Positions 1-14,233 of a stretch of DNA of 15,982 nt are shown here, piece after piece. Source of the DNA: a virus. Lineage: Duplodnaviria; Heunggongvirae; Uroviricota; Caudoviricetes. Positions within the stretch are counted from its first letter, which is position 1; the number at the start of each line of letters is the position of its first letter. The notes below the pieces were generated by a model. The model ran no database searches, had not been told where the DNA came from, and was given only the letters and a program-made list of their open reading frames with translations. The stretch lies in IMG/VR virus record IMGVR_UViG_2737471818_000008; one strand, given 5' to 3'. The position numbers were made by a program, and so were the translations under genes.

Positions 1-1254
1 ATGCTGGAACAAATGGGCATTGCCGCGAAGCAAGCCTCGTATAAATTAGCGCAACTCTCCAGCCGCGAAAAAAATCGCGTGCTGGAAAAAATCGCCGATG
101 AACTGGAAGCACAAAGCGAAATCATCCTCAACGCTAACGCCCAGGATGTTGCTGACGCGCGTGCCAATGGCCTTGGCGAAGCGATGCTTGACCGTCTGGC
201 ACTGACGCCCGCACGGCTGAAAGGCATTGCCGATGATGTGCGCCAGGTGTGTAACCTCGCCGATCCGGTGGGGCAGGTAATCGATGGCAGCGTACTGGAC
301 AGCGGCCTGCGTCTTGAGCGTCGTCGCGTACCGCTGGGGGTTATTGGCGTGATTTATGAAGCGCGCCCGAACGTGACGGTTGATGTCGCTTCGCTGTGCC
401 TGAAAACCGGTAATGCGGTGATCCTGCGCGGTGGCAAAGAAACGTGTCGCACTAACGCTGCAACGGTGGCGGTGATTCAGGACGCCCTGAAATCCTGCGG
501 CTTACCGGCGGGTGCCGTGCAGGCGATTGATAATCCTGACCGTGCGCTGGTCAGTGAAATGCTGCGTATGGATAAATACATCGACATGCTGATCCCGCGT
601 GGTGGCGCTGGTTTGCATAAACTGTGCCGTGAACAGTCGACAATCCCGGTGATCACAGGTGGTATAGGCGTATGCCATATTTACGTTGATGAAAGTGTAG
701 AGATCGCTGAAGCATTAAAAGTGATCGTCAACGCGAAAACTCAGCGTCCGAGCACATGTAATACGGTTGAAACGTTGCTGGTGAATAAAAACATCGCCGA
801 TAGCTTCCTGCCCGCATTAAGCAAACAAATGGCGGAAAGCGGCGTGACATTACACGCAGATGCAGCTGCACTGGCGCAGTTGCAGACAGGCCCTGCGAAG
901 GTGGTTGCTGTTAAAGCCGAAGAGTATGACGATGAGTTTCTGTCATTAGATTTGAACGTCAAAATCGTCAGCGATCTTGACGATGCCATCGCCCATATTC
1001 GTGAACACGGCACACAACACTCCGATGCGATCTTGACCCGCGATATGCGCAACGCCCAGCGTTTTGTTAACGAAGTGGATTCGTCCGCTGTTTACGTTAA
1101 CGCCTCTACGCGTTTTACCGACGGCGGCCAGTTTGGTCTGGGTGCGGAAGTGGCGGTAAGCACACAAAAACTCCACGCGCGTGGCCCAATGGGGCTGGAA
1201 GCACTGACCACTTACAAGTGGATCGGCATTGGTGATTACACCATTCGTGCGTAA
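1..1254 (+). CDS. proA: gamma-glutamyl phosphate reductase (glutamate-5-semialdehyde dehydrogenase), proline biosynthesis
   Basis: Full-length 417-aa ORF; I recognise the sequence as enterobacterial ProA over its whole length (aldehyde dehydrogenase fold, same length as E. coli ProA). GC-rich core-genome composition. Identity is from memory, not a search. Confidence 0.95.
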
Positions 1255-1368
1255 ATAAAACCGGGTGATGCAAAAGTAGCCATTTGATTCACAAGGCCAT
1301 TGACGCATCGCCCGGTTAGTTTTAACCTTGTCCACCGTGATTCACGTTCGTGAACATGTCCTTTCAGG

Positions 1369-1444
1369 GCCGATATAGCTCAGTTGGTAGAGCAGCGCAT
1401 TCGTAATGCGAAGGTCGTAGGTTCGACTCCTATTATCGGCACCA
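1369..1444 (+). tRNA. thrW: tRNA-Thr (anticodon CGU), thrW-like; probable integration target of the downstream element
   Basis: 76-nt cloverleaf read directly: acceptor stem GCCGATA/TATCGGC, D-arm GCTC-AGTTGGTA-GAGC, anticodon stem GCGCA/TGCGA with loop TTCGTAA (anticodon CGT), T-arm GTAGG-TTCGACT-CCTAT, 3' ACCA. Lies directly downstream of proA as thrW does in E. coli. Confidence 0.9.
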
Positions 1445-1535
1445 TTCTAACGTCTCCCCAAGTCTACTCAAGTATTTAAAAACCTCTTATAATCCGCATG
1501 TTAGCGCCCCTTTTAGTCTTTTGACGTCTACTTAA

Positions 1536-1607
1536 GTACCCCAAAATCTACAGTCAATTGGGGGTACTTTTGGGGGTATTTGCTGTTCGGTTTAGTGGAG
1601 GTACCCC
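1536..1607. promoter_or_regulatory. Cluster of GGGGTAC/GTACCCC repeats just upstream of int (candidate int promoter/operator or integrase arm-type sites)
   Basis: Seen directly: GTACCCC (1536-1542), GGGGGTAC (1560-1567), GGGGGTA (1572-1578), GGTACCCCC (1599-1607), in both orientations within about 70 bp and ending 4 bp before the int start codon. Confidence 0.4.
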
Positions 1608-1610
1608 CAA

Positions 1611-2825
1611 GTGAAACTCAATGCCCGTCAAATAGACACTGCCAAGCCAAAAGAGAAGGCTTACAAGCTGGCTGATGGTGGTGGTCTGTATCTCCTGGTA
1701 AAACCTAGTGGAGGAAAATACTGGCGCTTTAAATATCGTGTAGCTGGTAAAGAGAAGCTGTTAGCACTAGGTGTGTATCCTGAAGTTACCTTGGCTGATG
1801 CTCGTGCAAAACGTGAAGAAGCTAAAAGGGGTATCGCTGGGGGTATCGATCCGATGGAAGCGAAACGAGAGGAAAAGATTGCCCGGGAAACGCAGTTAAA
1901 CAATACCTTCAAAGATATTGCCCTTGAGTGGCACAGCAGCAAATTAAAAAAATGGTCTGCTGGTTATGCTTCAGATATCCTCGAAGCCTTCAACAAAGAT
2001 GTGTTCCCTTACATTGGCAAAAAACCAATCGCCGAAATCAAACCACTTGAACTTCTGAATGTGCTGCGACGCATCGAGGGGCGCGGTGCTACAGAAAAAG
2101 CCAAAAAAGTGAGGCAGCGGTGCGGGGAAGTTTTCCGCTATGCAATAGTCACTGGTCGCGCAGAGTATAACCCTGCCCCAGATCTTACTAGCGCGATGCA
2201 AGGCCATGAATCTAATCATTATCCTTTCCTCACAGCCAAAGAATTGCCTGATTTTTTCAAGGCATTGTCCAGTTACTCAGGAAGTGCATTGGTTGTTATG
2301 GCGGCTCGTCTACTGATTATCACTGGTTTGCGAACTGGCGAACTGCGCGGTGCATTATGGGATGAAATCGATCTCAACAAGGCTATCTGGGAGATACCTG
2401 CTTCACGGATGAAAATGCGTCGCCCTCATGTGGTGCCTTTGTCTAAGCAGGCTCTTTCTCTTATTGGGCAGATTAAAGAATTAACTGGTAATTATCCGCT
2501 TATGTTTCCCGGCCGTAATGATCCAAGGAAAACAATGAGCGAGGCTAGCATAAACCAAGTATTTAAACGCATCGGCTATAACGGAAAGGTTACTGGTCAT
2601 GGATTCCGGCACACCATGAGCACGATTTTACATGAGCAGGGCTATAACACCGCGTGGATAGAAACGCAGCTTGCACACGTTGATAAGAACTCAATTCGTG
2701 GCACGTACAATCATGCGCAATATCTGGACGGGCGGCGCGAGATGCTCCAGTGGTACGCCGACTATATGGATTCGCTCGAACATGGCGGTAACGTGGTGCA
2801 TGGCAAGTTCGGAAAATGTGGATGA
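1611..2825 (+). CDS. int: Site-specific tyrosine recombinase, P4-type integrase
   Basis: 404-aa ORF with GTG start and GGAG 10 nt upstream. N-terminal arm-binding region typical of P4-family integrases (AKPKEKAYKLADGGGLYLLVKPSGGKYWRFKYR). Catalytic signatures present: RTGELR, HGFRHT (H-x-x-R) and a C-terminal Tyr (RGTYNHAQY). Adjacent to a tRNA gene. Confidence 0.92.
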   Translation: MKLNARQIDTAKPKEKAYKLADGGGLYLLVKPSGGKYWRFKYRVAGKEKLLALGVYPEVTLADARAKREEAKRGIAGGIDPMEAKREEKIARETQLNNTFKDIALEWHSSKLKKWSAGYASDILEAFNKDVFPYIGKKPIAEIKPLELLNVLRRIEGRGATEKAKKVRQRCGEVFRYAIVTGRAEYNPAPDLTSAMQGHESNHYPFLTAKELPDFFKALSSYSGSALVVMAARLLIITGLRTGELRGALWDEIDLNKAIWEIPASRMKMRRPHVVPLSKQALSLIGQIKELTGNYPLMFPGRNDPRKTMSEASINQVFKRIGYNGKVTGHGFRHTMSTILHEQGYNTAWIETQLAHVDKNSIRGTYNHAQYLDGRREMLQWYADYMDSLEHGGNVVHGKFGKCG

Positions 2826-2953
2826 CTGGTTGCGTATACAGTAGTAGACTTTGAGCGACGAAAGAAAAGGCTGTGTCTAGGGTCGCTCCCGAAAATCCGT
2901 ACACCTCGACGGACTGGTACAGCCACTACAGTAGAGGACGCTGAGGTGTGCGT

Positions 2954-3751
2954 ATGATTGATATTCATGCCGAATTAAACGAATACAAAAAAGATTTTAT
3001 TTCTTTACGTGAATTTCTTGAGGTCGTGCTTAAGGTCGCTGGTGATGATTATGATGTTTCAGATGTCATAACTTGGATACTCAGGAGAATAAGCGGAGAA
3101 CATATCCGCCTGTACACAGTAAATGAATTTAAGCTGTTGGAATCTTTTTGTAACCCGTATCGGGATGAATTTGATTATGATGTTCTTTATAGAAATCTGA
3201 ATGCGGTTCGGAAACGTGGTTGTTTACCTGGTGAGAGGGATGAAAATGGTTTTCTGGTGTCCGGTTATTGGGAAGATCCCGAATTTGAGAACATTGGATT
3301 TATAAGGGGTGAAATTTTCGCAATTTTTCCCGATGTCCTTGACGCGTTAACGAAGCTGGAAGGCGCTAACTCTTCTGAAAATGACGAGGCACAAGGACGC
3401 GATATTGAAAAGAAAGAGTTGCGTACAGAGGATGATTTATTATCCCAAATCGCAATGCTGGAAAAAGAAAACGCAGAGTTAAGGGCAAGGATAGAGCAGT
3501 TAGAGCAAGAGCGCCCGATACACTTATATAAATACTGGGATAAAGACCCATTAGCTAAGGCTATTGAGATTAGAAACAGAGAGTGGGCCAATTACGATCC
3601 AGAAAATGATTTTGCCACCAGGGGAAATCAAGAAGCGATAACCAGGGAGCTTAAGCAGTGGGGGGCAAGTAATGCACTTGCAACGCTCATAGAGAGGACT
3701 GCCTGCCCTATTAACCGAGACAACAGCCAAAAGAACGCAAAGCCGGATTAA
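2954..3751 (+). CDS. Hypothetical protein with a coiled-coil segment; AT-rich orphan cargo gene between int and alpA
   Basis: ORF with ATG at 2954 and GAGG 7 nt upstream (the ORF track begins at GTG 2948). Visibly more AT-rich than the flanking int and alpA. Heptad-like stretch LLSQIAMLEKENAELRARIEQLEQER. No catalytic motif recognised. Confidence 0.6.
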   Translation: MIDIHAELNEYKKDFISLREFLEVVLKVAGDDYDVSDVITWILRRISGEHIRLYTVNEFKLLESFCNPYRDEFDYDVLYRNLNAVRKRGCLPGERDENGFLVSGYWEDPEFENIGFIRGEIFAIFPDVLDALTKLEGANSSENDEAQGRDIEKKELRTEDDLLSQIAMLEKENAELRARIEQLEQERPIHLYKYWDKDPLAKAIEIRNREWANYDPENDFATRGNQEAITRELKQWGASNALATLIERTACPINRDNSQKNAKPD

Positions 3752-3765
3752 CGCACCATACCGCA

Positions 3766-3910
3766 TACCCTGAGGATGATTTACTGTTACCCTGAGGGTA
3801 TTTTTTTATCTTCCCCGTCAATTTTACCATCACCCTTAGGGTAGATTTCCTCCCGATTACCATCACCCTTAGGGTTAATTTCCTTCCGGTAACCATTAGG
3901 CCTGAGGGTA
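3766..3910. repeat. Array of palindromic TACCCT-N-AGGGTA motifs including two 27-bp direct repeats, upstream of alpA
   Basis: Seen directly: TACCCTGAGG (3766-3775), TACCCTGAGGGTA (3788-3800), ACCCTTAGGGTA (3832-3844), ACCCTTAGGGT (3865-3875), CCTGAGGGTA (3901-3910). The 27-bp units TTACCATCACCCTTAGGGTAGATTTCC (3824-3850) and TTACCATCACCCTTAGGGTTAATTTCC (3857-3883) differ at 2 positions. Confidence 0.6.
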
Positions 3911-3978
3911 TGAAAATATTCGTTATTTCTGTGCCATGATTACCTCGTCAAATTGAGTAGACGTTATGAGGTAAATAT

Positions 3979-4176
3979 ATGTCAAATACGCTTATTCGTT
4001 TAACAGAAGTTCAGCGTAGAACTGGATATAGCAAGGCATGGATTTATCGCCTTATGGGGCAAGGTAAATTTCCTGCATCAGTTAAAATTGGCTCGCGAGC
4101 TATTGCTTTCGTTGAGAGTGAAATTGACGAGTGGATTAATCAGCGTATTGCGGAATCACGCGGAACAGCTACCTGA
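3979..4176 (+). CDS. alpA: AlpA-family phage transcriptional regulator / excisionase-like DNA-binding protein
   Basis: 65-aa ORF with GAGG 7 nt upstream of the ATG. LIRLTEVQRRTGYSKAWIYRLMGQGKFPASVKIGSRAIAFVESEIDEWI is the characteristic AlpA/Vis-type winged-HTH sequence found after int in P4-like and PICI elements. Confidence 0.85.
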   Translation: MSNTLIRLTEVQRRTGYSKAWIYRLMGQGKFPASVKIGSRAIAFVESEIDEWINQRIAESRGTAT

Positions 4177-4253
4177 TTAAATGGCTACGGGGCTATTGCC
4201 CCCAGCTATCCACCAGCAAATAAAAGTAACTTAATTCGATAGCAGGAGTTTTT

Positions 4254-5054
4254 ATGAAATTTCCAAAAACGCCCGTACAGGGGCGGGGCTTCGTTCGGCC
4301 TGAAAACCAGAATCTGCAAAATTTCGGCGAAATTATCCCGATTATTTCCGGCGTTATTGGCGGGAGTGAAACCACTATTGTTAGCGCCAGAGCGTTACAT
4401 AAGGCGTTAGGTGTAGGGCGCGTTTTCCGTTCGTGGATCAAGGGGCGCATTGAAGAATACGGGTTCACGGAAGGCGTGGATTATGAGGTTGTTGAATATT
4501 TGAGCCGACCCGATCCGGTGAGCGCAAAATCTCGCCAGCAAACCGCTCTTGAGTACATCATCACAGTGAACATGGCGAAAGAACTGGCGATGGTAGAACG
4601 CACCGAACAGGGGCGCGCCGTTCGTCAGTACTTCATCAAATGCGAGGAAGAGCTACACAAGGTTGCGCCTGTACGTTCCGCAGCGTTACGCCGGGAACTG
4701 AAAGCCCGTATCACAGTTGCCAGCTACTTTAAGCCAATGTGTGCCGCGCTGGAGGCGTACCGGGCTGAACTGGGTAAAAACACTCTACAGCACCACTACA
4801 CCACGGAAGCCAATATGCTGGCGCGTATCGTGCTGGGTGGCATGACTGCAAAACAGTGGGCGCAGGCGAACGGCATCACAGGCGAACCACGCGACCACAT
4901 GAGCACGTTGCAGCTTGAGCACCTTTCTTACCTTGAGCAGAGCAATATCACGCTGATTGAGTTAGGCCAGGACTACCACCAGCGGAAAGCTGAATTAATT
5001 CGCCTTTCGCAGCGTTGGTTAGCCCGTCGCATGGAGGAAAACAGCCATGTGTAA
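4254..5054 (+). CDS. Phage antirepressor-like protein (AntA/ORF6N-type N-terminal domain)
   Basis: 266-aa ORF with CAGGAG upstream. The N-terminal stretch SARALHKALGVGRVFRSWIKGRIEEYGFTEGVDYEVV matches the pattern I associate with AntA/ORF6N antirepressor N-domains. The domain assignment is from memory and needs an HMM search. Confidence 0.6.
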   Translation: MKFPKTPVQGRGFVRPENQNLQNFGEIIPIISGVIGGSETTIVSARALHKALGVGRVFRSWIKGRIEEYGFTEGVDYEVVEYLSRPDPVSAKSRQQTALEYIITVNMAKELAMVERTEQGRAVRQYFIKCEEELHKVAPVRSAALRRELKARITVASYFKPMCAALEAYRAELGKNTLQHHYTTEANMLARIVLGGMTAKQWAQANGITGEPRDHMSTLQLEHLSYLEQSNITLIELGQDYHQRKAELIRLSQRWLARRMEENSHV

Positions 5055-6348
5055 CGCTCTGACCGTTACAAAAAGAGAAAGCGCCCCGTTGCCGGAGCGC
5101 CTTTGTGAACGAATAGCCTACTGCGCCATATTGCTTACTGTCTACGGGGCAGATTATAGCGTTGTGGTCGCACAGAGTGAAGGCGCTGATCACCGTTTCT
5201 ACAGCACGCCGGAAATGCAGAATATTTTGCTGCAAAATGCCGTTGGTCACGCCGTCCGGAAAGCAAAAAATTTTGCTGGTGGTGCGACCGATACGATTTT
5301 GTCAGGTCGCCAGGTGCTGATTAATCTGATGTCTGATTTCGTTCTGGATAAAACAAAGGCGACCGCAGAGGGCCGCCAGTGGGAAAGCTACATACTTGAA
5401 CGCATCGCCAACAATGCCAGATTTGCGGCTGGTGGACAATGTGTCAGCTTTGCACCAATGACTCTATGTTTAACTGAGGGTCATTATGGTGAATATGCTG
5501 GCTTGCTGGTGGGCTATTCCTGCTCTTTAACATTGCCATGCCGCGATGTTTTCCAGGTATGCGATCCCATTTTTGTGCGCCTGTACTCTTTAAGGAATTG
5601 CTCAAGGGCAAAAGCACATGGCGCGAATCTTTCTGATTCATGCTCTATCTTTCTGCGCCGTCTTTTCCGTGCCGGTGATGGTGTATTGGTTGATTCTTTG
5701 TTGGTCATGGCGCTGCCCTGTAAAACGATGCACCGTAGTTCCTCACACCACGGCGCTGGTGATGGTTACTCCTGTTCTTTGGCCTTGCGGCGCTGGCGGT
5801 ATTCAACTTCTCGCTTTAATGCTGCTGTTACAAACTGCCCTGTACTTTCACCAGGCATTTTTACCGCCTCAACATTGTTCATAACTTCATGCGGAACCCT
5901 TGCCGCAACTGTTTGTGATTTTGCGTTTACTGCTTTTGTCGCCATGTTGTGTACCCCTTACAAAAAACAAATGCAGTATGCAGGAAAAAAAATAAGTGTT
6001 CAACACTTGACGTGTTTAACACCTGGACTTAAATTGGTGTTCAACACCTTGTTGATGCAAGGTGCAGAAACGACAACGCCCCGCAGTGGTGGCACACATG
6101 CAGGACGTCTAACCACCAACGATAGCAAGAGTATCGAGGTAGCTATGAGAAATCATACCACACACCCGCAAGGGCGGGACTCGCACAACCTGAATAAATA
6201 CATCTGGCGTTTTATCGCCCTGAGCACGGCACAACCGCGCGTAATTCACATCGAGGCCACCAGCGAACAGGAAGCACGCCAGCAATCTCCTGATGGCTGC
6301 GTGATGGTATTCGCCGCCCGTATTCGCCAGGAGGTGGAACATGTGTAA
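5047..6348 (+). CDS. Hypothetical protein; only the 5' ~140 codons look coding. The 433-codon ORF is probably a chimeric read-through across an antisense gene, an intergenic operator region and a separate in-frame small gene
   Basis: Start ATG overlaps the stop of the upstream gene (ATGTGTAA). Codon usage over about 5047-5470 looks like normal coding sequence. Beyond that the translation becomes Cys/Ser/Thr-rich and crosses an operator/promoter cluster at 5996-6047. No in-frame stop exists before 6348. Confidence 0.25.
   Translation: MCNALTVTKRESAPLPERLCERIAYCAILLTVYGADYSVVVAQSEGADHRFYSTPEMQNILLQNAVGHAVRKAKNFAGGATDTILSGRQVLINLMSDFVLDKTKATAEGRQWESYILERIANNARFAAGGQCVSFAPMTLCLTEGHYGEYAGLLVGYSCSLTLPCRDVFQVCDPIFVRLYSLRNCSRAKAHGANLSDSCSIFLRRLFRAGDGVLVDSLLVMALPCKTMHRSSSHHGAGDGYSCSLALRRWRYSTSRFNAAVTNCPVLSPGIFTASTLFITSCGTLAATVCDFAFTAFVAMLCTPYKKQMQYAGKKISVQHLTCLTPGLKLVFNTLLMQGAETTTPRSGGTHAGRLTTNDSKSIEVAMRNHTTHPQGRDSHNLNKYIWRFIALSTAQPRVIHIEATSEQEARQQSPDGCVMVFAARIRQEVEHV
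5766..5945 (-). CDS. Small ribbon-helix-helix-like DNA-binding protein (59 aa), candidate repressor of the divergent promoter; not in the supplied ORF track because it is under 60 aa
   Basis: Hand-translated from the minus strand: MATKAVNAKSQTVAARVPHEVMNNVEAVKMPGESTGQFVTAALKREVEYRQRRKAKEQE. AAGGGG lies 8 nt upstream of the ATG. The pattern is strand (TVAARV), helix, loop, helix. Three palindromic operators lie immediately upstream. Confidence 0.4.
   Translation of the reverse strand: MATKAVNAKSQTVAARVPHEVMNNVEAVKMPGESTGQFVTAALKREVEYRQRRKAKEQE
5996..6047. promoter_or_regulatory. Divergent promoter/operator region: three GTGTT(C/T)AACAC palindromes overlapping a sigma70-like promoter
   Basis: Seen directly: GTGTTCAACAC (5996-6006), GTGTTTAACAC (6012-6022), GTGTTCAACAC (6037-6047). 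TTGACG (6007-6012), a 17-bp spacer, then TAAATT (6030-6035) forms a plus-strand promoter with operators flanking the -35 and overlapping the spacer and the region just downstream of the -10. Confidence 0.55.
6145..6348 (+). CDS. Small protein (67 aa), possibly Icd-like host cell-division inhibitor family; first gene of the rightward operon
   Basis: In-frame ATG at 6145 with GAGG 6 nt upstream, downstream of the operator/promoter cluster. MRNHTTHPQGRDSHNLNKYIWRFIALSTAQPRVIHIEATSEQEARQQSPDGCVMVFAARIRQEVEHV resembles my recollection of Icd-like small proteins in P4-like prophages. Unverified. Confidence 0.4.
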   Translation: MRNHTTHPQGRDSHNLNKYIWRFIALSTAQPRVIHIEATSEQEARQQSPDGCVMVFAARIRQEVEHV

Positions 6349-6565
6349 TGCAACATGGCCTGATGCAGCGGTAGACGCTATCAAAACGCTGATGGATTCA
6401 CTTATTGAGATTTCTGCTATCGCTGGTGTGGCGCATAAACACGCAGCCAGAGAATCAGAATGCATCTCCCATTATTTAGCATTTGTGCAGCTAAAAGCCG
6501 ATCAGGCACTGGATAAGGCCGGAAAAATTATCATGGCTGATGTGCAGGAGGTGCACCATGCATAA
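6341..6565 (+). CDS. Hypothetical small protein (74 aa)
   Basis: ORF with AGGAGG 9 nt upstream of the ATG. Start overlaps the preceding stop (ATGTGTAA); first of a chain of overlapping small genes. Confidence 0.55.
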   Translation: MCNATWPDAAVDAIKTLMDSLIEISAIAGVAHKHAARESECISHYLAFVQLKADQALDKAGKIIMADVQEVHHA

Positions 6566-6923
6566 CCTGTCAATTTCTGACCTTAACAGCATTCAGTTTG
6601 ACGAGAAATTTACCGGGCAGTTGCTGGTCAATGTGGAGAACGGGCGCATAGTGCGTAATTACCACCTGCCGGATGGTGCAATTGCCGGAAGCGTTGAAGC
6701 ATTGCTGGAACTGGCGGAACGTGCGCGACTGATTAAGCCGTCAACGAGCCATCACGATGATGATCTGCATTTTACCGGGCGTATGGTGAGTCACTACGAA
6801 AACGGCGTTGAAGTATCCCGCGAACGGCTGCGTGATGATTGCTGTTTCGGCACACTGCCGGAATTTATCGAGTTGCTGACCAGTTGCGGTTATCAGGTCA
6901 TTCAGGGGGGTAAACATGCGTGA
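6558..6923 (+). CDS. Hypothetical protein (121 aa)
   Basis: ATG at 6558 preceded by AGGAGG at about 8 nt (the ORF track's upstream ATG at 6540 has no RBS). Overlaps its neighbours in operon fashion. Confidence 0.6.
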   Translation: MHNLSISDLNSIQFDEKFTGQLLVNVENGRIVRNYHLPDGAIAGSVEALLELAERARLIKPSTSHHDDDLHFTGRMVSHYENGVEVSRERLRDDCCFGTLPEFIELLTSCGYQVIQGGKHA

Positions 6924-7149
6924 TGATCGTTTTAATTCCCTGAAACGGGAATTTGATGGCGCACCGGAAGATGCAGCGGGCGCATTGTTGAGCGTTGCTG
7001 ACATGATGAAAGCTGCATATTTTCTTATCAATACCAGTGGCTACAAGTCAGAGGGTGAAATGATTCTTAGTATTGCGTCGGACTATGCGGAATATGTGGC
7101 AGAGACGCGTTACAGAAGAAAATTCACGGAGGATGTAAGCCATGCATAA
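6916..7149 (+). CDS. Hypothetical small protein (77 aa)
   Basis: ORF whose start overlaps the upstream stop (ATGCGTGA); G-rich RBS upstream. Confidence 0.55.
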   Translation: MRDDRFNSLKREFDGAPEDAAGALLSVADMMKAAYFLINTSGYKSEGEMILSIASDYAEYVAETRYRRKFTEDVSHA

Positions 7150-7342
7150 TCATGAAGCGCATGTACCCGTAGTGCTTAATGTGCCAGATGATTTCACCGG
7201 ACGCGTATTGGTTTACCTGGATAAAGGGAAAGTGAAATCACAATGCCGACTGAAAAGTAATGAGATTGTTGGTTCTCCTGAATTTTTTTCTGAACTTTGT
7301 ATTCGTGCGGAAATAAAACCGGAACTGCTGACAGGAAAATAA
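7142..7342 (+). CDS. Hypothetical small protein (66 aa)
   Basis: ORF with GGAGG upstream; start overlaps the upstream stop (ATGCATAA). Confidence 0.55.
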   Translation: MHNHEAHVPVVLNVPDDFTGRVLVYLDKGKVKSQCRLKSNEIVGSPEFFSELCIRAEIKPELLTGK

Positions 7343-7346
7343 AACC

Positions 7347-7637
7347 ATGAAAAAGAAAAATTCTGGCTTTACTGCCAGCGGCCTCTCTCGGCCTGAAATC
7401 CGCCCCGGTGATATTTTCCGGGACACCAGACGCGGGGGACGGGTGGTTATTCGTCACGTTACGCCAGGCAATATCACCTACCGCCGTGAGGCTTACGAAT
7501 ATGACTGCGTAATGCCGCGCCGTCAGTTTGATCGTGATTTTATTCTGGTGGAAAACAAACAACAGGCAGTGGCGAGACGTGCAGCCACGAATATTAAAAA
7601 AATCCGGGCAATGTTGGTTGCGGGAGGTAAGAAGTGA
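7347..7637 (+). CDS. Hypothetical basic protein (96 aa)
   Basis: ORF immediately after the previous stop; its stop overlaps the primase GTG start (GTGA). Confidence 0.6.
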   Translation: MKKKNSGFTASGLSRPEIRPGDIFRDTRRGGRVVIRHVTPGNITYRREAYEYDCVMPRRQFDRDFILVENKQQAVARRAATNIKKIRAMLVAGGKK

Positions 7638-9439
7638 AAAACGCACCGAGTCTAAAATATCAGCCGAAGGATAAATTCACTGAGGTAATCATTTTTGCCG
7701 GGACGGATGCTTACGCCCATGCTCAACACTGGATTGAAAGTGAAGGACGAAAACACGGCGATAACGTGCCTCCTGTTTACCTGGGGCCAAAGCAACTGGC
7801 AGACCTGGCGAATATCCGCATTATTGACGAGAAACGCCGTTTTGCGCGTGTCTATATCGCGGGGGAGATAGAGCCAATCCAGATCAATACTATCGCTGAA
7901 AAGCTGGCGCTGGCTGGCGTACAGGAGGCGAAATTATACAAAGGTATCACCGACCAGGAACCGGAGAACTGGCGCGACTACCTGCAACGGATCCGCGAAC
8001 AGGCTGAGCACGGGGAAGTTTCAGTGATGAAATTAGCTACAAAAAATAGTGGTCTACCCAAGCCTGCATTAAATCAGATGGGAGCCAGCCAGAGAGGGGA
8101 GGTGTTACTTGAACATTATGGAGGAGCACTGGCGATAAATGATGATTCTGATGTAGTTCACCATTACAACGGAATTGTTTGGGAGCCTGTATCTGATAAA
8201 GAACTCCAGCGGTCTATGGCGAAGATTTTTATTGATGCCGAAATTAGTTATTCGCAAAACGCCATTAAATTTGCCGTAGAGACAATGAAATTGAGTCTAC
8301 CTGTTATGGGGGGAGCGGACAGAAATCTTATTGGGTTCAGTAACGGTGTTTTTGATATCAGGACAGGAAATTTTCGGGAACACAACAAAAATGACTGGTT
8401 GTTAAATGCCAGTGAATTACCGTTCAGCCCGCCAGAAGAGGGGGAAACGCTGGCAACACATGCGCCGAATTTCTGGAAGTGGTTGCGTCGTTCGGTGGCG
8501 GATAATGCTCGTAAAGCGGATCGCGTACTGGCGGCATTATTCATGGTACTGGCGAACCGGTACGACTGGCAGTTATTCCTTGAGGTAACGGGGCCGGGCG
8601 GAAGCGGTAAAAGTGTGATGGCGGAGATTTGTACCATGCTGGCGGGTAAGGCCAATACAGTATCGGCGAGCATGAAGGCGCTGGAAGACGCGAGGGAACG
8701 AGCGTTAGTGGTAGGATATTCTCTGATTATCATGCCTGACATGACCCGCTACGCAGGTGATGGTGCTGGGATTAAGGCCATTACAGGCGGTGACAAGGTG
8801 GCTATCGATCCGAAACACAAAGCGCCCTATTCCACGCGCGTTCCTGCGGTAGTGCTGGCAGTAAACAATAATGCCATGTCATTCAGCGACCGTAGTGGGG
8901 GGATCTCGCGTCGACGAGTGATATTTAATTTCTCTGAGGTTGTACCAGAGAACGAACGCGATCCGATGCTGGCGAAAAAGATAGAAGGGGAACTGGCCGT
9001 AGTGATTCGCCATTTGCTTACACGATTTGCCGACCAGGACGAAGCGAAAAGACTACTTTATGAGCAGCAAAAATCAGAAGAAGCACTGTTAATAAAGCGT
9101 GAAGGTGATTCGCTGGTGGACTTCTGCGGTTATCTGATGTCGTTGGTTAAATGTGAGGGGATGATAGTAGGTAATGCAGAAATAGTGCCATTTAGCCCGA
9201 GGCGATATCTGTATCATGCTTATTTGGCTTATATGTCTGCGCATGGTCTGGGAAAACCGGTATCACTGACACGCTTTGGTACAGATATGCCAGGGGCAAT
9301 GGCTGAGTACGGAAAGGAGTACAAGCGGGCTAAATGCACTAAAGGTCCAGATAAAGGGCGAACGATCACAAATGTTCTGTTAGATAAAGATGCTGATGGA
9401 TGGTTACCAGCAGCGGCAGGCATTAACGACAGAACATGA
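7634..9439 (+). CDS. Phage/plasmid primase, P4 family (primase-helicase with C-terminal NTPase domain)
   Basis: 601-aa ORF with GTG start and GGGAGG upstream. Walker A GPGGSGKS and a downstream Walker-B-like acidic motif; overall architecture typical of P4 alpha-like / PICI pri-rep proteins. An iteron array follows immediately. Confidence 0.88.
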   Translation: MKNAPSLKYQPKDKFTEVIIFAGTDAYAHAQHWIESEGRKHGDNVPPVYLGPKQLADLANIRIIDEKRRFARVYIAGEIEPIQINTIAEKLALAGVQEAKLYKGITDQEPENWRDYLQRIREQAEHGEVSVMKLATKNSGLPKPALNQMGASQRGEVLLEHYGGALAINDDSDVVHHYNGIVWEPVSDKELQRSMAKIFIDAEISYSQNAIKFAVETMKLSLPVMGGADRNLIGFSNGVFDIRTGNFREHNKNDWLLNASELPFSPPEEGETLATHAPNFWKWLRRSVADNARKADRVLAALFMVLANRYDWQLFLEVTGPGGSGKSVMAEICTMLAGKANTVSASMKALEDARERALVVGYSLIIMPDMTRYAGDGAGIKAITGGDKVAIDPKHKAPYSTRVPAVVLAVNNNAMSFSDRSGGISRRRVIFNFSEVVPENERDPMLAKKIEGELAVVIRHLLTRFADQDEAKRLLYEQQKSEEALLIKREGDSLVDFCGYLMSLVKCEGMIVGNAEIVPFSPRRYLYHAYLAYMSAHGLGKPVSLTRFGTDMPGAMAEYGKEYKRAKCTKGPDKGRTITNVLLDKDADGWLPAAAGINDRT

Positions 9440-9473
9440 TACGAAATTTATAAGTTGAAACTTAAAAGTAGAC

Positions 9474-9806
9474 GGTTGGTAGACAGATACACTTAACCCT
9501 CTACCAACCATCTACTAATTAATGTTTTGAATTATATAGGTATTTTTAATGTGGTAGAGAGGTGGACAGTTTATTTTATATTTCTAAACCACGGGGGTAT
9601 CTAAAAATAGATAGTTATGGGTTCATTTTTAAAATTTTTCTTTTAACTATCTACACTGTCTACCATTTAGTAAAAATCATTAATTATCAATGTATTAATA
9701 CGGTAGAGAGTTGGTAGACAGTTTGCAGATTGTTTTTTGTTATGTGTGAACAACATTAAATAAATCAATCAATTATATCGATAGACAGTTGGTAGACAGT
9801 TGTAAC
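9474..9806. repeat. Iteron array, probable replication origin: about 8-9 copies of GGTAGA(C/G)AG(TT) in both orientations in an AT-rich segment
   Basis: Seen directly: GGTTGGTAGACAG (9474-9486) with inverted partner CTACCAACCA (9501-9510); GTGGTAGAGAGGTGGACAGTT (9551-9571); ACTGTCTACCA (9655-9665, inverted); CGGTAGAGAGTTGGTAGACAGTT (9701-9723); tandem TAGACAGTTGGTAGACAGTT (9782-9801). Directly downstream of the primase gene. Confidence 0.65.
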
Positions 9807-9807
9807 G

Positions 9808-10350
9808 ATGGGGCAAAGCATGACTAAGCTGACCATTAACAGAAAACCGAAAGGCATTTACGGCACGCCGCAGAAAACGACGCAGGCGGCACAGGAGCAG
9901 GATAAAACCACGTCGGCGCATAAAGTGATGCCCGGTAACCAGAAAGCGCAGCAGAAGCCCACAGGGGCGACACCGTGGCGGCATATGACCAAGCGCCAGC
10001 GCAAAAACCGCAGGCGCATTAACCGCCTCACTGAGTTGTGGCCTGAATTATTCAGCCGGGAAGCACCGAAGCCGCTTAAGGTGGGGATATTCGACGACCT
10101 GATGCAGGATCTCGCCGTCAGGGGGCTGGCATTCGGTCTAGGGGCATTGCGTGCGACGCTGGCATCTTATGCACAGTGTCCGCGCTATTACCGCGCCTTA
10201 ATGGCTGGTGGGGTACGCTACGACCTGAAAGGCCAGCCGTGCGGCGAGGTGACACCACAGGAACAACAGGACGCAGAAACGCGGCTGGTGGCGCTGAATG
10301 AGAAGCGCAAACGTCAGCGCCGGGTAGCAAAGGAGAAAACAGGCGCATGA
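9808..10350 (+). CDS. ProQ/FinO-domain RNA-binding protein (RNA chaperone family)
   Basis: The segment ELFSREAPKPLKVGIFDDLMQDL...YAQCPRYYRALMAGGVRYDLKGQPCGEVT aligns by eye with the E. coli ProQ N-terminal FinO-like domain (PLKIGIFQDL...RVDLDGNPCGEL). Basic, low-complexity N-terminus. The start may be ATG 9808 or ATG 9820. Confidence 0.8.
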   Translation: MGQSMTKLTINRKPKGIYGTPQKTTQAAQEQDKTTSAHKVMPGNQKAQQKPTGATPWRHMTKRQRKNRRRINRLTELWPELFSREAPKPLKVGIFDDLMQDLAVRGLAFGLGALRATLASYAQCPRYYRALMAGGVRYDLKGQPCGEVTPQEQQDAETRLVALNEKRKRQRRVAKEKTGA

Positions 10351-10634
10351 TTCACGACAGCAAAGCGGAAGCACTGGAAGCGCGTGGTCTGTACCGGAGA
10401 GCGGCGGCGCGGTGGGCTGAGGTCATCATGCTGGCGAATGATGACAAGGCACGGGAACAGGCGGCAAAACGTCGCGCGGAATGTATCCGCAAGGCAGCAC
10501 GCCCACCAGCAAGGCAGGATAATTTCGGGGAGATGCGCGAAACCATCAGCCGGGCACATGCCGGGATGGGATTACATCAGCCCAATGGTAAGGCATTCAG
10601 GAAATACCCTGGATCGAAAAATTGCAGTCAGTGA
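10347..10634 (+). CDS. Small regulatory protein, possibly a PerC-family transcriptional activator
   Basis: 95-aa ORF translationally coupled to the upstream gene (ATGA overlap). The N-terminal AEALEARGLYRRAAARWAEVI resembles the conserved N-terminus I recall for PerC-family proteins. Family assignment is from memory. Confidence 0.6.
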   Translation: MIHDSKAEALEARGLYRRAAARWAEVIMLANDDKAREQAAKRRAECIRKAARPPARQDNFGEMRETISRAHAGMGLHQPNGKAFRKYPGSKNCSQ

Positions 10635-10639
10635 CGGAG

Positions 10640-10663
10640 GCCGGGATTTTTCCCGGCTTTTTT
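10640..10663 (+). terminator. Rho-independent terminator after the ProQ/PerC-like gene pair
   Basis: GCCGGGA-TTTT-TCCCGGC forms a 7-bp GC-rich stem with a 4-nt loop, followed by TTTTTT; begins 6 nt after the stop codon. Confidence 0.75.
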
Positions 10664-10675
10664 GTGCCAGTAAAA

Positions 10676-10710
10676 AGCCCGCAGCCAGAAGTGTTGCGGG
10701 CTTTGTTTTT
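10676..10710. terminator. Second hairpin terminator, possibly bidirectional
   Basis: AGCCCGCA...TGCGGGCT forms an 8-bp stem, flanked by an A-run upstream and TTGTTTTT downstream. Confidence 0.55.
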
Positions 10711-10835
10711 CAGGTGATTGAAGTCAATGGGAAGAACGCGATCATCATGCGTTATTGTTTCATAAATTGCAATGATGTAGATCGTCATTTCAGTTTGTGC
10801 AATCATAACTATTGTTTTGTTCAGGAGATATGACT

Positions 10836-11009
10836 ATGAGAAAAGCCAGCGTGAAACCTGTTTTACTCGCTCGTGATCAGATTGAAGCATTACAGCGCAT
10901 CCAGGACGAGGAACGCCGCAATTCTCCGCTGGGGATTGCTCCGAGCATTCATGAGGTCGCCCGGCGTTTAATGCAGCGGGCGCTTTATCCCGTAGAACGT
11001 CCGGCCTGA
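10836..11009 (+). CDS. Hypothetical small protein (57 aa)
   Basis: ATG at 10836 with AGGAG 8 nt upstream (the ORF track's TTG at 10812 is less likely). Charged, helical composition. Confidence 0.5.
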   Translation: MRKASVKPVLLARDQIEALQRIQDEERRNSPLGIAPSIHEVARRLMQRALYPVERPA

Positions 11010-11048
11010 TGGTCGTGATTTTTTGGTGAAAAAAGAGAGGTGGTAAAA

Positions 11049-11627
11049 ATGCCAGCAAGCAAAGAAGATTTGCGATTAAAACTGATGGAGGTGGTTAACG
11101 CTCTGTCAGAGTCGCAGGGCAGCACTCCGCAGGAGATTATCGAAATTCTGAATGCGATCCCCGCACAGGATTTCATAAAAGAGGATAACGCTAATCAAAA
11201 CATCGTCGCGTCAGTCGAAGATGAATCCTCACTGGCAGAAGCCCAGGCTAAAGCAGATTCCGCATACAGCAATATGGGCCGTCGCGCTCCAGCCCCGTTT
11301 GCTGGTGAAAAGTCGATGGATTACCGCAAGCGTGCATTAATTGGTGCACAGAAGCTGGCTAAAAAATTCAGTGATGTGGATATTCGTTCCGTTTCAGATT
11401 CTGCAACGCTGGCGGTGCTGGAAGATCAGATTTACCAGGCTGCAAAAGACAGTGTTCAGTGGGCTGTGGAAAATACGCCGGGCTATTTGCGTAAAACCGT
11501 AAGAATGGATGAAGCCGGACGGCGGATTACTGAATATCAGGGGGATCCGAATAACTGGCTTAGTGCTTTCAAAATCCCTCCCCGTCGCCTGGTCAAAATT
11601 AACGTTGCAAGCCTCGCGGGGGCATGA
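11049..11627 (+). CDS. Hypothetical acidic protein (192 aa); candidate morphogenesis/packaging-interference protein
   Basis: ATG at 11049 with GAGAGG upstream (the ORF track start 11040 is probably too early). Normal coding composition. No similarity to P4 Psu, Delta or Sid recognised. Confidence 0.65.
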   Translation: MPASKEDLRLKLMEVVNALSESQGSTPQEIIEILNAIPAQDFIKEDNANQNIVASVEDESSLAEAQAKADSAYSNMGRRAPAPFAGEKSMDYRKRALIGAQKLAKKFSDVDIRSVSDSATLAVLEDQIYQAAKDSVQWAVENTPGYLRKTVRMDEAGRRITEYQGDPNNWLSAFKIPPRRLVKINVASLAGA

Positions 11628-11691
11628 AAAACGTGCTGAGTTCAGCCCTGCCGGATTTGGCGGGGCTTATTGCTTATAACCGGATAACATT

Positions 11692-12363
11692 ATGCTTTTA
11701 ACAGAAATTGAGGCGGCGAAGCAGATTCGGGACGGACAGCTACCGTCGCCTTATCAGTTTTCCAACATGTGGCTGGTTAACCTGCGTATCACAGGAACCG
11801 GAATGGCCTACCGCGCAGAAGAAAAAGAATTTGTCTGGCGTTCACCGCAAACTTATCTCAATCCGCAGTTCCTGGAACGTTGCGCCGGAGTACCCGTAAT
11901 TATCGACCATCCCGAAAGCAAAACCCTTGAAGACGTGGGCGAACGGTCGCGCATTATTGGCACCGTCATGTTGCCGTATATTCGCGGTGACGAGGTGTGG
12001 GGCGTATGCCGGATTTACGGGCAGGAAATCATCGATTACATCCAGAAAGCACGGGGGGAGGTATCCACCAGTCCGTCGGTTGTGTTTTGTGGTGCGTCCG
12101 GTGGGGCTGAAGTTCCTGATGTAATGGGCGAGGACAATTTTTTTATTGAGGGTACGCCATTTCTTATCGATCACGTTGCACTCGTACCGTTGGGCGTATG
12201 GGATAAGGATGGGAAACCATCGGGTGTGGAGGTAACAACGCCGACAGCAGAAGAGCAGCTTGCCGGAATGGTCCGGGACGTTATTGATGCGGCCTGCAAG
12301 CCAGCCCTGGAAAAACTGGAAGAAATATCCGGGCGGCTGGCTCAACTGGAAAAAGAAGGGTGA
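11692..12363 (+). CDS. Hypothetical protein (223 aa); weak prohead-protease-like motifs
   Basis: Clean ORF. Contains IIDHPES, FCGASGGAE and LIDHVAL, which could correspond to a His/Ser protease arrangement. Speculative. Confidence 0.65.
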   Translation: MLLTEIEAAKQIRDGQLPSPYQFSNMWLVNLRITGTGMAYRAEEKEFVWRSPQTYLNPQFLERCAGVPVIIDHPESKTLEDVGERSRIIGTVMLPYIRGDEVWGVCRIYGQEIIDYIQKARGEVSTSPSVVFCGASGGAEVPDVMGEDNFFIEGTPFLIDHVALVPLGVWDKDGKPSGVEVTTPTAEEQLAGMVRDVIDAACKPALEKLEEISGRLAQLEKEG

Positions 12364-12369
12364 GTCATA

Positions 12370-12897
12370 ATGCTGATGAGTAAGGCAGAATATGCCAAAC
12401 ACAAAGGCGTAAGCCGCCAGACAGTTTACGACTGGATCGAGAAAGGCGAAGTGGTCATGTCCGGTAAAAAAATCGATGTGGAAGCGACAGAGCAGCGGAA
12501 CAGCCCACCAGCACAGGGAAAAGACACAGTTTCTGAAATGTGGCCAGAGAGAACGCTGGAAATGACGTGGGGCGAGTTCTGGAAAGCAGTTAAGGCCAGA
12601 GACGGTAAAATTCCTGCGCCAGCAACGGACGAGGGCATACAGCAGCGTGTGCTGGATGCAGCCGGGGAATTAGGCTGGGAAGTGCACTTTCTTGATGATG
12701 GTGCTATCTGCCTTGAGGATTGCGACGGGCAGCATTACTTTGAACAATACAATTTGCGAGGTAATGCCAGGCTGGCAATTCGTATGCTGCGTTGCGAACT
12801 CTGCTATGTTGCAGGTGATTATGCCGATGAACTGGAATCATGGAGTGAAGCCGGGCTAAACGCCCTGGCTGAATGGGAAAAATCAGACCATCAATGA
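12370..12897 (+). CDS. HTH DNA-binding protein (175 aa); candidate small-terminase-like / packaging-redirection or regulatory protein
   Basis: The N-terminal SKAEYAKHKGVSRQTVYDWIEKGEV is a recognisable helix-turn-helix. The gene is followed immediately by a structured repeat array. Confidence 0.65.
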   Translation: MLMSKAEYAKHKGVSRQTVYDWIEKGEVVMSGKKIDVEATEQRNSPPAQGKDTVSEMWPERTLEMTWGEFWKAVKARDGKIPAPATDEGIQQRVLDAAGELGWEVHFLDDGAICLEDCDGQHYFEQYNLRGNARLAIRMLRCELCYVAGDYADELESWSEAGLNALAEWEKSDHQ

Positions 12898-12901
12898 CAT
12901 C

Positions 12902-13195
12902 AAAAAGTGTCAAGTTGAGCAGCTTGCCGGGTTGACACTTTACACTCTGAACGCGAAAAAGTGTCAACCTCGCTGTAAGCCCCGCCGTTACTGGCCTTGC
13001 GCCAGATTTACCACGTCAAAAAGCCGAAAAAATCGCGAAAAGTGTCAAGTTGACATGCTTAGAAATGCCAGGGATGGTTAAGTTTTGTTAAGGTTTTTCG
13101 TGAAAAAGTGTCAAGTGTGTCAACCTACGATATTAAGATTTATTAAGGTCTTAAGCCGGAAAGTGTCAACCAGCCCCTAAGATTTCCTAAGGTGT
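12902..13195. repeat. Two-motif repeat array: at least 6 copies of (A)AAGTGTCAA(C/G) interleaved with 3 copies of TAAG(A/T)TTT-NN-TAAGGT; candidate packaging (cos/pac) recognition or operator region
   Basis: Seen directly: GTGTCAAG (12907-12914) with inverted GTTGACAC (12931-12938); GTGTCAAC (12961-12968); palindrome GTGTCAAGTTGACA (13042-13055); tandem GTGTCAAG-TGTGTCAAC (13108-13124); GTGTCAAC (13163-13170). Interleaved TTAAGTTTTGTTAAGGT (13079-13095), TTAAGATTTATTAAGGT (13132-13148), CTAAGATTTCCTAAGGT (13177-13193). Confidence 0.6.
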
Positions 13196-13200
13196 AAATC

Positions 13201-13383
13201 ATGACCATCACCGAAGCCGATATGCTGGAGATGATCCGCAGCATTGCCGGAATCAAACAACCAGCAAGCAAAATTAACAGGTGTTCAGCGCCTGTTTCCG
13301 TTGTGCTGCAACAGGAATGCCACCAGCGGCGGGAAAACGAAAAGGCGTACCAATGGACGAAGCCAAACAAGTTACGGCGTTAA
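13201..13383 (+). CDS. Hypothetical small protein (60 aa)
   Basis: ATG with AAGGTG 7 nt upstream, directly after the repeat array; followed by a hairpin. Confidence 0.4.
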   Translation: MTITEADMLEMIRSIAGIKQPASKINRCSAPVSVVLQQECHQRRENEKAYQWTKPNKLRR

Positions 13384-13392
13384 TTAGGAATA

Positions 13393-13415
13393 CGGGCTGA
13401 GATAGCCCGCATTTT
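13393..13415. terminator. Short hairpin between convergent genes (weak, possibly bidirectional terminator)
   Basis: CGGGCT-GAGAT-AGCCCG forms a 6-bp stem, followed by CATTTTG; sits in the 34-bp gap between the plus ORF ending at 13383 and the minus ORF ending at 13418. Confidence 0.35.
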
Positions 13416-13417
13416 GC

Positions 13418-13675
13418 TCACAGCTTGTTATACATTTTTCCAGCGAAGTCATGAACCGCCTGAGGAATATCCGACGGCGTACCTAGCATTGTTGGCGCAT
13501 CGGAAACAAAGAACATGATCGCTTCTTTGATTTCTTCGAAAGATGGGGTAGGGGTAATGCGCTTGAGATTTGAAACCGCCCGTAGGAACTCCGCCGTATC
13601 CATTGGATGCCTGCTAAACCACGTTGGACGAGAAGCCCAACATTTTACTGCTTCTTTCACCTTAGTGTTCATCAT
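13418..13675 (-). CDS. Hypothetical protein (85 aa), minus strand
   Basis: ORF with AAGGA 5 nt upstream of its ATG on the minus strand; convergent with the 13201-13383 gene. No family recognised. Confidence 0.3.
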   Translation of the reverse strand: MMNTKVKEAVKCWASRPTWFSRHPMDTAEFLRAVSNLKRITPTPSFEEIKEAIMFFVSDAPTMLGTPSDIPQAVHDFAGKMYNKL

Positions 13676-14233
13676 TTTTCCTTTTGCTTATTACCATACA
13701 AAGCATGTGGAAAGAGAAGATTAACATGGAAAATATGGAGTTGGTGAGCAAATGAAAGGTACTGGTAGCCTGTCGACATCTATCAGCATGATGATGTGAG
13801 ACCGTATCAGTGGCGGAAACCGAACAGGCTGCGACGGTGAGCGGAGCGTTACGGTAAGCCAACAGCCAAGCCAAACATTAAGTCTACAGGTAAGGTTGTT
13901 TTTTTGCAGGTGGCATTAATTTGTATGTTGGTTTGAGGAGCATTTTTACTGAGACTGCCTGTTCTGGTTAGTTTTTTCGTATGATATACACCTCATCAAA
14001 ATTGTCCGACAGTGTGGAGCGGCGTGGCGGGGAGAGTATTGTGTGCTAGAGATTATAGTTACACTTTAATCTACGACACGATCGTAATTTTTCACTCTTC
14101 TTTTCAGATAAGCTACTACTGAGTTCACAAAAATAACATTATTTTATATCCATGTGTTATCTTTATCTGATATTAATGTGCTGTTCGGTCTTTTTTTGAC
14201 TGCAAACGGCATTAATCATATTAAGGAAACCAA

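Follow-up and report, generated by a model that had tools for sequence, protein, structure and literature searches.

The stretch of DNA analyzed here (15,982 nucleotides; its full length is referred to as the window) carries the 3' end of proA upstream of thrW, and the order proB-proA-thrW is found in annotated relatives. This tRNA-Thr(CGT) gene is the sole tRNA detected by ARAGORN in the window (Table 1), and both this program and the Rfam score bear out the first-pass annotation of the sequence, which had described the tRNA as intact; weak Rfam matches to ncr1175, anti-hemB, and Plastid-ycf2 lay below the gathering score and were disregarded. The int gene follows on the same strand. Its product begins with an Arm-DNA-bind_3 domain (PF13356; residues 3-88, 3.6e-29), matches PF22022 (1.3e-34) and PF00589 (4.8e-26) in its central (residues 100-194) and catalytic (206-371) domains, and displays the motifs TGLRTGE, HGFRHT, and RGTYNHAQY in its translation. 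An int-alpA RNA element (Rfam RF02996; 45.5 bits against a gathering score of 35.8) is present at 2870-2937 (+), just downstream of int; this element, with tandem GTAGAC units before it, is kept after int in many related loci.

Besides int, the gene content comprises an AlpA/Vis homologue, Ant-like and Icd-like genes, a primase-helicase related to P4 alpha, ProQ/FinO-like and PerC-like genes, head-protease-like and small-terminase-like genes, and an Old-family nuclease at the attR end. The head-protease-like and small-terminase-like fragments are the only virion- or lysis-type genes. When all P4 proteins were compared with the window by tblastn, only int, alpha (C-terminal part), and vis were matched; no sid, delta, psu, or epsilon was detected in the window, which leaves the last ~760 bp of the island outside. 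Since sid, delta, and psu were not found, the element falls outside the P4-like satellites, while the layout of Gram-negative PICIs is present, with ~15.3 kb between the cores, int, AlpA, and a D5_N/DUF5906 primase. Judged by this gene content, the island resembles a P4-type or PICI-type satellite in the way it would work.

Several other features of the island deserve mention. Upstream of the alpA-like gene, at 3770-3910, two tandem units of 33 bp (3824-3856 and 3857-3889) that are 88% identical occur together with several CCCTNAGGGT palindromes; alpA may be controlled from an operator here. Between the small-terminase-like HTH gene and the next open reading frame (12898-13169), (CG.G)AAAAAGTGTCAA is present in at least five copies at spacings of 54-147 bp, which could represent a packaging site or an operator array. 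A 433-codon open reading frame at 5047-6348 (+) has no Pfam match and overlaps the YlcI/YnfO-like (minus strand) and Icd-like genes; the RefSeq annotation of the E. coli genome EC11 holds only a partial pseudogene at the equivalent place, and the frame may be spurious or a decayed gene. The attR-proximal gene at 14240-15982 (+) has a low GC content (32-36%) and encodes an Old-family ATPase/TOPRIM nuclease (PADLOC Old, 1.7e-62). In the sister island of GCM74-1-1 (L002, 20265-22221), an AAA ATPase and DUF4435 pair (PARIS-like) occupies the equivalent place, and the position next to attR looks like an exchangeable slot for anti-phage cargo.

Table 1. Features at the thrW-int junction and the candidate excisionase gene (positions in the window)
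Feature	Position	Strand	Basis or remark
tRNA-Thr(CGT), thrW, intact	1369-1444	+	ARAGORN; Rfam RF00005, 71.8 bits
attL core, TCCTATTATCGGCACCATT	1428-1446	+	Last 17 nt of the tRNA plus TT; common to attL, attR, attP, and attB
CACCATT, probable strand-exchange (overlap) segment	1440-1446	+	Comparison of single-G cores with the intact attL
P' arm of the island att site	1447-1610	+	164 bp, core to int start codon
GTCTAC, RTCTAY copy 1, candidate directionality-factor (AlpA/Vis homologue) site	1462-1467	+	Position conserved in thrW relatives
GTCTAC, RTCTAY copy 2	1526-1531	+	Family-conserved class
GGGGTAC (GTACCCC on the + strand), not a conserved arm site	1536-1542	-	Middle RTCTAY-array position
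ATCTAC, RTCTAY copy 3, in the family-conserved block (T)TGAAATCTAC	1546-1551	+	AATC invariant in the five-way alignment
Putative arm-type site P'1, GGGGGTAC, direct	1560-1567	+	Aligns with P4 'attP arm sequence repeat' 3954-3965
Putative arm-type site P'2, GGGGGTAT, direct	1572-1579	+	Aligns with P4 repeat 3942-3953
GGAGG, int Shine-Dalgarno sequence	1597-1601	+	Read from the sequence; 9 nt before GTG 1611
Putative arm-type site P'3, GGGGGTAC, inverted, between int Shine-Dalgarno sequence and start codon	1601-1608	-	Aligns with P4 repeat 3915-3926
int, 404-aa tyrosine integrase, GTG start	1611-2825	+	Pfam; 404-codon ORF
AlpA/Vis-family HTH protein, candidate excisionase	3979-4176	+	Pfam Phage_AlpA 2.4e-19; PHROG 'excisionase and transcriptional regulator'

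The first-pass annotation had placed the left end of an island right after the tRNA and expected a direct repeat of the tRNA 3' end at attR farther downstream. In the window, no second copy of the tRNA 3' end was found at up to three mismatches, nor any other relevant direct repeat; an attR inside the window is thereby ruled out, and attR lies beyond the window end. The expected repeat, in imperfect form, was found in EC11 (E. coli, NZ_CP027255.1), which matches the window at ~100% over 1399-15982 and whose island runs a further 760 bp up to attR. Its right end reads ATTGGGGGTACTTTTGGGGGTAT, followed 61 bp on by TCCTATTATCGCACCATT, a copy of tRNA positions 1428-1446 minus one G; beyond this attR lies a LysR-fragment/paoD flank, and the core-to-core distance is 15,317 bp. 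The attR core copy is also present in GCM74-1-1 and MB10, where one G is missing as in EC11, and attR copies of 17-19 nt are exact in other species. An exact pair GGGGGTACTTTTGGGGGTAT is situated 59-61 bp upstream of the attR core in all three islands (EC11, GCM74-1-1, and MB10), the P arms of which have otherwise diverged. The cargo of GCM74-1-1 and MB10 differs; the GCM74-1-1 island is 98.1% identical to the window at the nucleotide level over the 72% that aligns, and MB10 is 92% identical across int and its upstream region.

We built the predicted empty site by joining window positions 1250-1446 to the flank that follows attR. Exactly this join, as a single 100%-identical piece, is present in 948 of the 5,426 complete E. 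coli genomes; with the attR copies and the circular attP of a relative, these empty sites uphold the island junction at thrW. For the circular forms, we scanned for a P-arm pair followed by 50-70 nt, the core, and the start of the P' arm. The IMG/VR contig L087 (12,914 bp; Int 93% identical to that of the window) possesses a 77-nt terminal direct repeat and is therefore circular. It carries, in this order, the pair, 61 bp, the core (with GG), the P' arm, the pair plus inverted copy, and int, and the 5' half of the tRNA is absent. A second circular contig of a related element (L088; PPYF01371357.1, 10.9 kb) came from the metagenome scan. Its P' arm is fused straight into the int coding region through a deletion that covers the arm pair, the inverted copy, and the first ~41 int codons, and L088 resembles a defective circular derivative. 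Three junctions from the same scan (L089-L091) connect a core with a single G to a P' arm closely resembling that of the window.

The block that the left junction has in common with attR and attP begins within the tRNA at 1428 and ends at 1446, so the first island-specific base is 1447, two bases past the CCA end. Hence the junction stands as first described, with the correction that island DNA does not start exactly at the tRNA end; the core boundaries are backed by the empty-site junction. One G of the GG at 1438-1439 is missing from the core in three attR sites and in three internal junctions, while attL always keeps an intact tRNA. Since GG is retained at attL and the cores on the P-arm side have a single G, exchange should take place 3' of that position, and most likely within CACCATT. 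Single-G cores are those of EC11 (L001, 32347-32364), L002 (22539-22556), L003 (37747-37764), and the internal junctions L089-L091; GG cores occur at the internal junction L086 and in the circular contigs L087 and L088. Both core variants therefore circulate. As to whether the missing G is a general property of attP, the result was mixed, with GG in L086, L087, and L088 and a single G in L089-L091 and the three E. coli attR sites.

The EC11 genome carries a myovirus-type prophage (L001, 1-17046) between thrW and this island, and at the junction the last 46 nt of the tRNA (window 1399-1444) occur a second time. This duplication indicates that two elements with different core lengths reside in tandem at the EC11 thrW locus. 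The P' arm of the window differs from that of EC11 at base 1499 only (catGttagcg in the window, catAttagcg in EC11), and the intervening prophage is absent from the window; the window hence does not derive from EC11 itself.

Between the tRNA and int, four GGGGTAC/GTACCCC copies in both orientations had been reported. Three exact copies are indeed present, at 1536-1542 (-), 1561-1567 (+), and 1601-1607 (-), and the fourth is the variant GGGGGTAT at 1572-1579 (+). The heptamer occurs five times in the 16-kb window against 0.70 expected, a count that none of 200 shuffles reached, and three of these five copies are packed into 72 bp. We aligned the P' arms of the window, MB10, EC22 (thrW; int gene ~70% identical), hubt-sl (selC; int gene ~65%), and P4. 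Against a mean identity of 74%, this five-way alignment left TGGGGG.A. (twice) and CCCCCAA.TG invariant. The copy at 1536-1542 is not conserved in it; it reads GTCCCTC in a relative with a 96%-identical Int and is unrelated sequence in others, and relatives carry TCTAY at this position. Three of the four repeats therefore belong to the proposed arm-type set, and the copy at 1536-1542 does not.

A genome scan with Int yielded 79 Enterobacterales loci (Int identity 61-99%) at tRNA-Thr, Arg, Gly, SeC, Ser, and Phe genes. Of 67 related loci at Thr, Arg, Gly, and SeC tRNAs, most have 164-166 bp separating the tRNA end from the int start. We scored the geometry of the sites by asking for a direct pair with a 12-bp period in which both members match the reverse complement of the 8-mer at the start codon in at least 7 of 8 positions. 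This arrangement is present in 55 of 78 loci (32 of 48 after removal of redundancy), compared with 0 of 3,900 shuffles. In the relatives, 0-2 nt separate the inverted copy from the start codon, and its sequence varies in concert with that of the direct pair. The motifs fall into the classes GGGGGTAY, GGGGGCAY, GGGGGCC/CT, (G/T)TGTATAG, and TGGTATAT, and direct and inverted copies always switch class together. On the other arm, a pair of the element's own family (GGGGG- or GTGTATAG-type) precedes the attR core by 55-65 bp in all six loci with attR within reach, among them an element of the GTGTATAG class.

The motif class also tracks three residues of Int (Table 2), which are Y27, L29, and L50 in the integrase of the window. 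All 39 GGGGGTA loci have Leu at residue 50, and all 26 GGGGGC loci have Arg or Lys. On a neighbour-joining tree calculated from the catalytic part of Int only, which groups the loci by tRNA target, at least six switches between the T and C classes were counted. The arm domain and its sites therefore appear to be exchanged as a unit that is uncoupled from core specificity. For residues 1-100 of Int, a single-sequence AlphaFold model is of low confidence (mean pLDDT 55) and was used for rough strand positions only; it places residues 25-30 and 49-59 in beta-strands. We tentatively propose, at somewhat worse than even odds, that residues 29 and 50 on neighbouring predicted beta-strands would act as a code for motif position 6 (Leu/Leu for T; Glu or Gln plus Arg for C), and that the arm domain, along with its five arm sites, has passed as one unit between integrases of different tRNA targets on at least six occasions. 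Direct contacts of Arg with G and of Leu with the methyl group of T are plausible. If this proposal is true, recombination of the thrW island would be orthogonal to that of P4-type elements sharing its cell or arranged in tandem with it at one tRNA. The residue-base covariation could in part reflect co-inheritance of the swapped module instead of direct contact. The P-arm pair of L030 is mixed (GGGGGTA plus GGGGGCA), so that position 6 may be partly tolerated and not discriminating.

Table 2. Arm-motif class and Int residues in related loci
Motif class	Residue 27	Residue 29	Residue 50
GGGGGTA	Y (F in 5, H in 1)	L, 39/39	L, 39/39
GGGGGCA	Y	E or Q, 24/24	R, 24/24
GGGGGCC/CT	Y	L, 2/2	K, 2/2
GTATAG	S	L	M

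The earlier suggestion that the repeats are arm-type integrase sites or an int operator gains support from the Arm-DNA-bind_3 domain, the alignment with the P4 repeats, the pair on the other arm, and the covariation of motif and Int. The best reading of the three 8-mers at 1560-1567, 1572-1579, and 1601-1608 is that of putative Int arm-type sites for intasome assembly. Our in silico analysis as a whole points to 1369-1610 being the attL of a ~15.3-kb, P4-related and PICI-resembling island integrated into the thrW 3' end, with the three G-rich 8-mers as arm-type sites of its Int; we put the probability of this reading at roughly 0.82. The N-terminal domain of Int would then read the direct pair (12-bp period) and the inverted copy on the P' arm. 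It would likewise read the second direct pair, which carries the same motif and lies on the opposite arm ~60 bp from the core, close to attR and beyond the window end. Strand exchange by the tyrosine integrase would take place in the 19-bp core (1428-1446), leaving the tRNA intact. By analogy with lambda-type heterobivalent integrases, which bridge arm and core sites to assemble the intasome (PMC2951348), Int molecules would connect the two kinds of sites in the complexes for integration and excision.

Int bound to the P' arm sites would in addition repress int. The gene is oriented away from the tRNA and its 5' region is located inside attL (tRNA end 1444, arm sites 1560-1608, int 1611, same strand); since the arm sites cover the int promoter region and the spacer between the Shine-Dalgarno sequence and the start codon, their occupancy probably leads to autorepression, as judged from related systems. 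IntS of KplE1 represses its own gene from an attL that overlaps the int promoter (PMC2951348; Panis et al., 2010), IntI of PAI I-536 represses its own promoter (PMC7286903), and P4 Int and Vis are described as repressors of Pint (PMC7286903, citing Piazzolla 2006). The sole int-oriented sigma-70-like site in this arm of P4 and L053 is TTGAAA-18-CATAAT, with its -10 region inside the repeat pair; the equivalent hexamers of the window are degenerate (CCAAAA and TACTTT). A scan of window positions 1250-1700 detected neither a sigma-70-like promoter nor a terminator-like site on the + strand. Repression by promoter occlusion is for this reason less clear here than in P4, and int may be weakly expressed or read through from thrW.

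P4 int is reportedly, in work by Piazzolla and colleagues from 2006, also under post-transcriptional control, and the arrangement of the repeats would allow such a role at the RNA level: GGGGGUAU (1572-1579) could pair with GUACCCCC (1601-1608) in a hairpin that hides the int Shine-Dalgarno sequence and limits translation, with DNA binding being secondary. The predicted int-leader hairpin (-25.8 kcal/mol) does enclose GGAGG, and covariation of the direct and inverted copies would preserve its stem as well. Its stability is not exceptional, though, with a z-score of -1.57 and 14 of 200 shuffles folding as well, and the scan of 1250-1700 offered no promoter upstream of the stem on the + strand. 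Moreover, the first direct copy and the P-arm pair co-vary too, the latter being situated beside attR, in the integrated island ~15 kb downstream of the int start, and the motif class follows residues in the DNA-binding domain of Int. We therefore consider it unlikely that the repeats serve primarily at the RNA level. The hairpin is possible as a secondary layer of control that leaves the far-arm sites unexplained.

Alternatively, the G-rich repeats could be operators recognized by some other protein than Int, for instance an AlpA/Vis-type excisionase-regulator or a host factor, and the island does encode an AlpA/Vis homologue (3979-4176), the P4 counterpart of which is reported to repress Pint (cited in PMC7286903). 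The correlation of motif class with Int residue 50 is perfect across at least six independent switches, the motif is kept in islands with other cargo, including L004, which lacks an annotated AlpA gene, and the RTCTAY repeats with their ~10-11-bp phase are better candidates for an excisionase than the G-rich 8-mers. Such an assignment of the 8-mers is accordingly very improbable.

These RTCTAY units form a second class of repeats. In relatives, they are arrayed in a ~10-11-bp phase immediately beyond the core and again directly ahead of the arm pair, and the GTACCCC at 1536-1542 occupies the position of a degenerate middle unit of such an array. The family-conserved block (T)TGAAATCTAC that contains copy 3 corresponds to a -35-like hexamer in P4 and relatives, which reads CCAAAA (degenerate) in the window. 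GTCTAC is present 15 times in the window, with 3.5 copies expected. The units change jointly from TCTAC to TCAAC in the thrW subgroup L024-L032 (copy 1 being GTCAAC there), and P4 has TCCGAG/TCCGGA at these positions. The AlpA-like protein is 37% identical to P4 Vis, and we propose the RTCTAY units as probable sites for this excisionase candidate. A further accumulation of such units, ~9 copies of TCTAC/GTAGAC in 300 bp, is found in an AT-rich intergenic stretch after the primase gene (9440-9820); these units face either way, and most form pairs at a distance of 9-11 bp. We examined whether one protein might serve both the attL units and this cluster. The cluster is confined to islands that share the primase module (the window, L007, and L002), other islands with TCTAC at attL lack it, and L024 and L028 combine an internal TCCAC cluster with TCAAC at attL; a common protein was rejected on these grounds. 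The cluster at 9440-9820 probably represents replication-origin iterons unrelated to the attL units.

That the locus is an ancestral, fixed one with chance or decayed repeats devoid of present function is scarcely credible: the imperfect E. coli attR copy (one G missing) and the degenerate look of the homologous int promoter would fit it, yet both attR copies and empty-site strains, which the first-pass annotation had named as decisive, were found (948 genomes with an empty site), the same site is occupied by islands with different cargo, relatives are circular, int is full-length with its catalytic motifs, and the enrichment and geometry of the repeats are far beyond chance.

For the arm-site reading of 1369-1610, the analysis provides exact island boundaries, with the core at 1428-1446 and attR ~760 bp past the window end, and a rule for locating both termini of a P4-type island, whose own 8-mer forms a direct pair ~60 bp before attR and recurs as a pair with one inverted copy right at the int start. 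The analysis also revises the repeat set by stating which of the four copies are functional candidates and by setting the phased RTCTAY class apart. The link between the arm motif and residues 27, 29, and 50 is a testable handle on arm-site specificity, with possible uses in predicting cross-talk of co-resident satellites and in designing orthogonal integrases. The feature as such belongs to a well-known kind, and the junction finding is correct but ordinary; its mechanism (a heterobivalent Int, arm sites, and int autorepression) is already textbook knowledge. In the literature searched, which did not extend to structural papers, we found no statement of a covariation between arm motif and Int residues, and this covariation may be the only part that goes beyond prior description.

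By its domains, its integration into a tRNA 3' end, and its two-arm repeats, the site belongs to the P4-type att sites (IntSXT-P4 subgroup). The P4 record annotates an 'attP arm sequence repeat' at six places (NC_001609; Pierson & Kahn 1987), four of which lie around the core in int orientation. Two tandem 12-mers are located 53 bp before the P4 core, two 112 bp after it, and one, inverted, over the int start. The distance from the core to the first repeat is thus 112 bp in P4 and 113 bp in this island. The two elements agree in the 12-bp repeat period, in the inverted copy placed at the int start, in a direct pair ~53-61 bp from the core on the far arm, in the domain architecture of Int, in integration into a tRNA 3' end, and in the Vis and alpha homologues. 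In contrast, the arm motif is GGGGGCAY with Glu29/Arg50 in P4 Int and GGGGGTAY with Leu29/Leu50 here, the target is leuX for P4 and thrW for this island, the two Int proteins are 43% identical, the P4 genes sid, delta, psu, and epsilon are absent from the part of this island covered by the window, and the P4 promoter TTGAAA-18-CATAAT is degenerate.

The IntS-TorI system of KplE1/HK620 (PMC2951348) resembles this locus in the direction of int transcription, which leads away from the tRNA, in the position of the int upstream region within attL, and in the presence of arm-type P' sites and excisionase sites between core and int, a layout for which negative autoregulation is predicted. It differs in the lineage of its integrase and in its arm motif, TAAA being common to the KplE1 P' sites, and its regulation has been demonstrated experimentally, whereas that of the present island is deduced. 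PAI I-536 (selC) and the P4-like islands of E. coli (PMC7286903) likewise have a P4-like Int beside a tRNA; the IntI of PAI I-536 represses its own promoter, and the selC relative L005 displays the same pair-plus-inverted arrangement as this island. They differ in being large pathogenicity islands, in their motif GGGGGCAT, and in an experimentally mapped IHF site. The closest structural counterparts are the arm-binding domains of HPI (PDB 3JTZ/3RMP) and HAI7 (3JU0), the study of which (Szwagierczak et al. 2009) is cited in PMC8138268. Residues 2-99 of the present Int align with them without gaps (E = 1e-26 and 6e-20), and in these alignments positions 27, 29, and 50 are occupied by Y/L/R in HPI, H/L/L in HAI7, and Y/L/L in the integrase of the thrW island.
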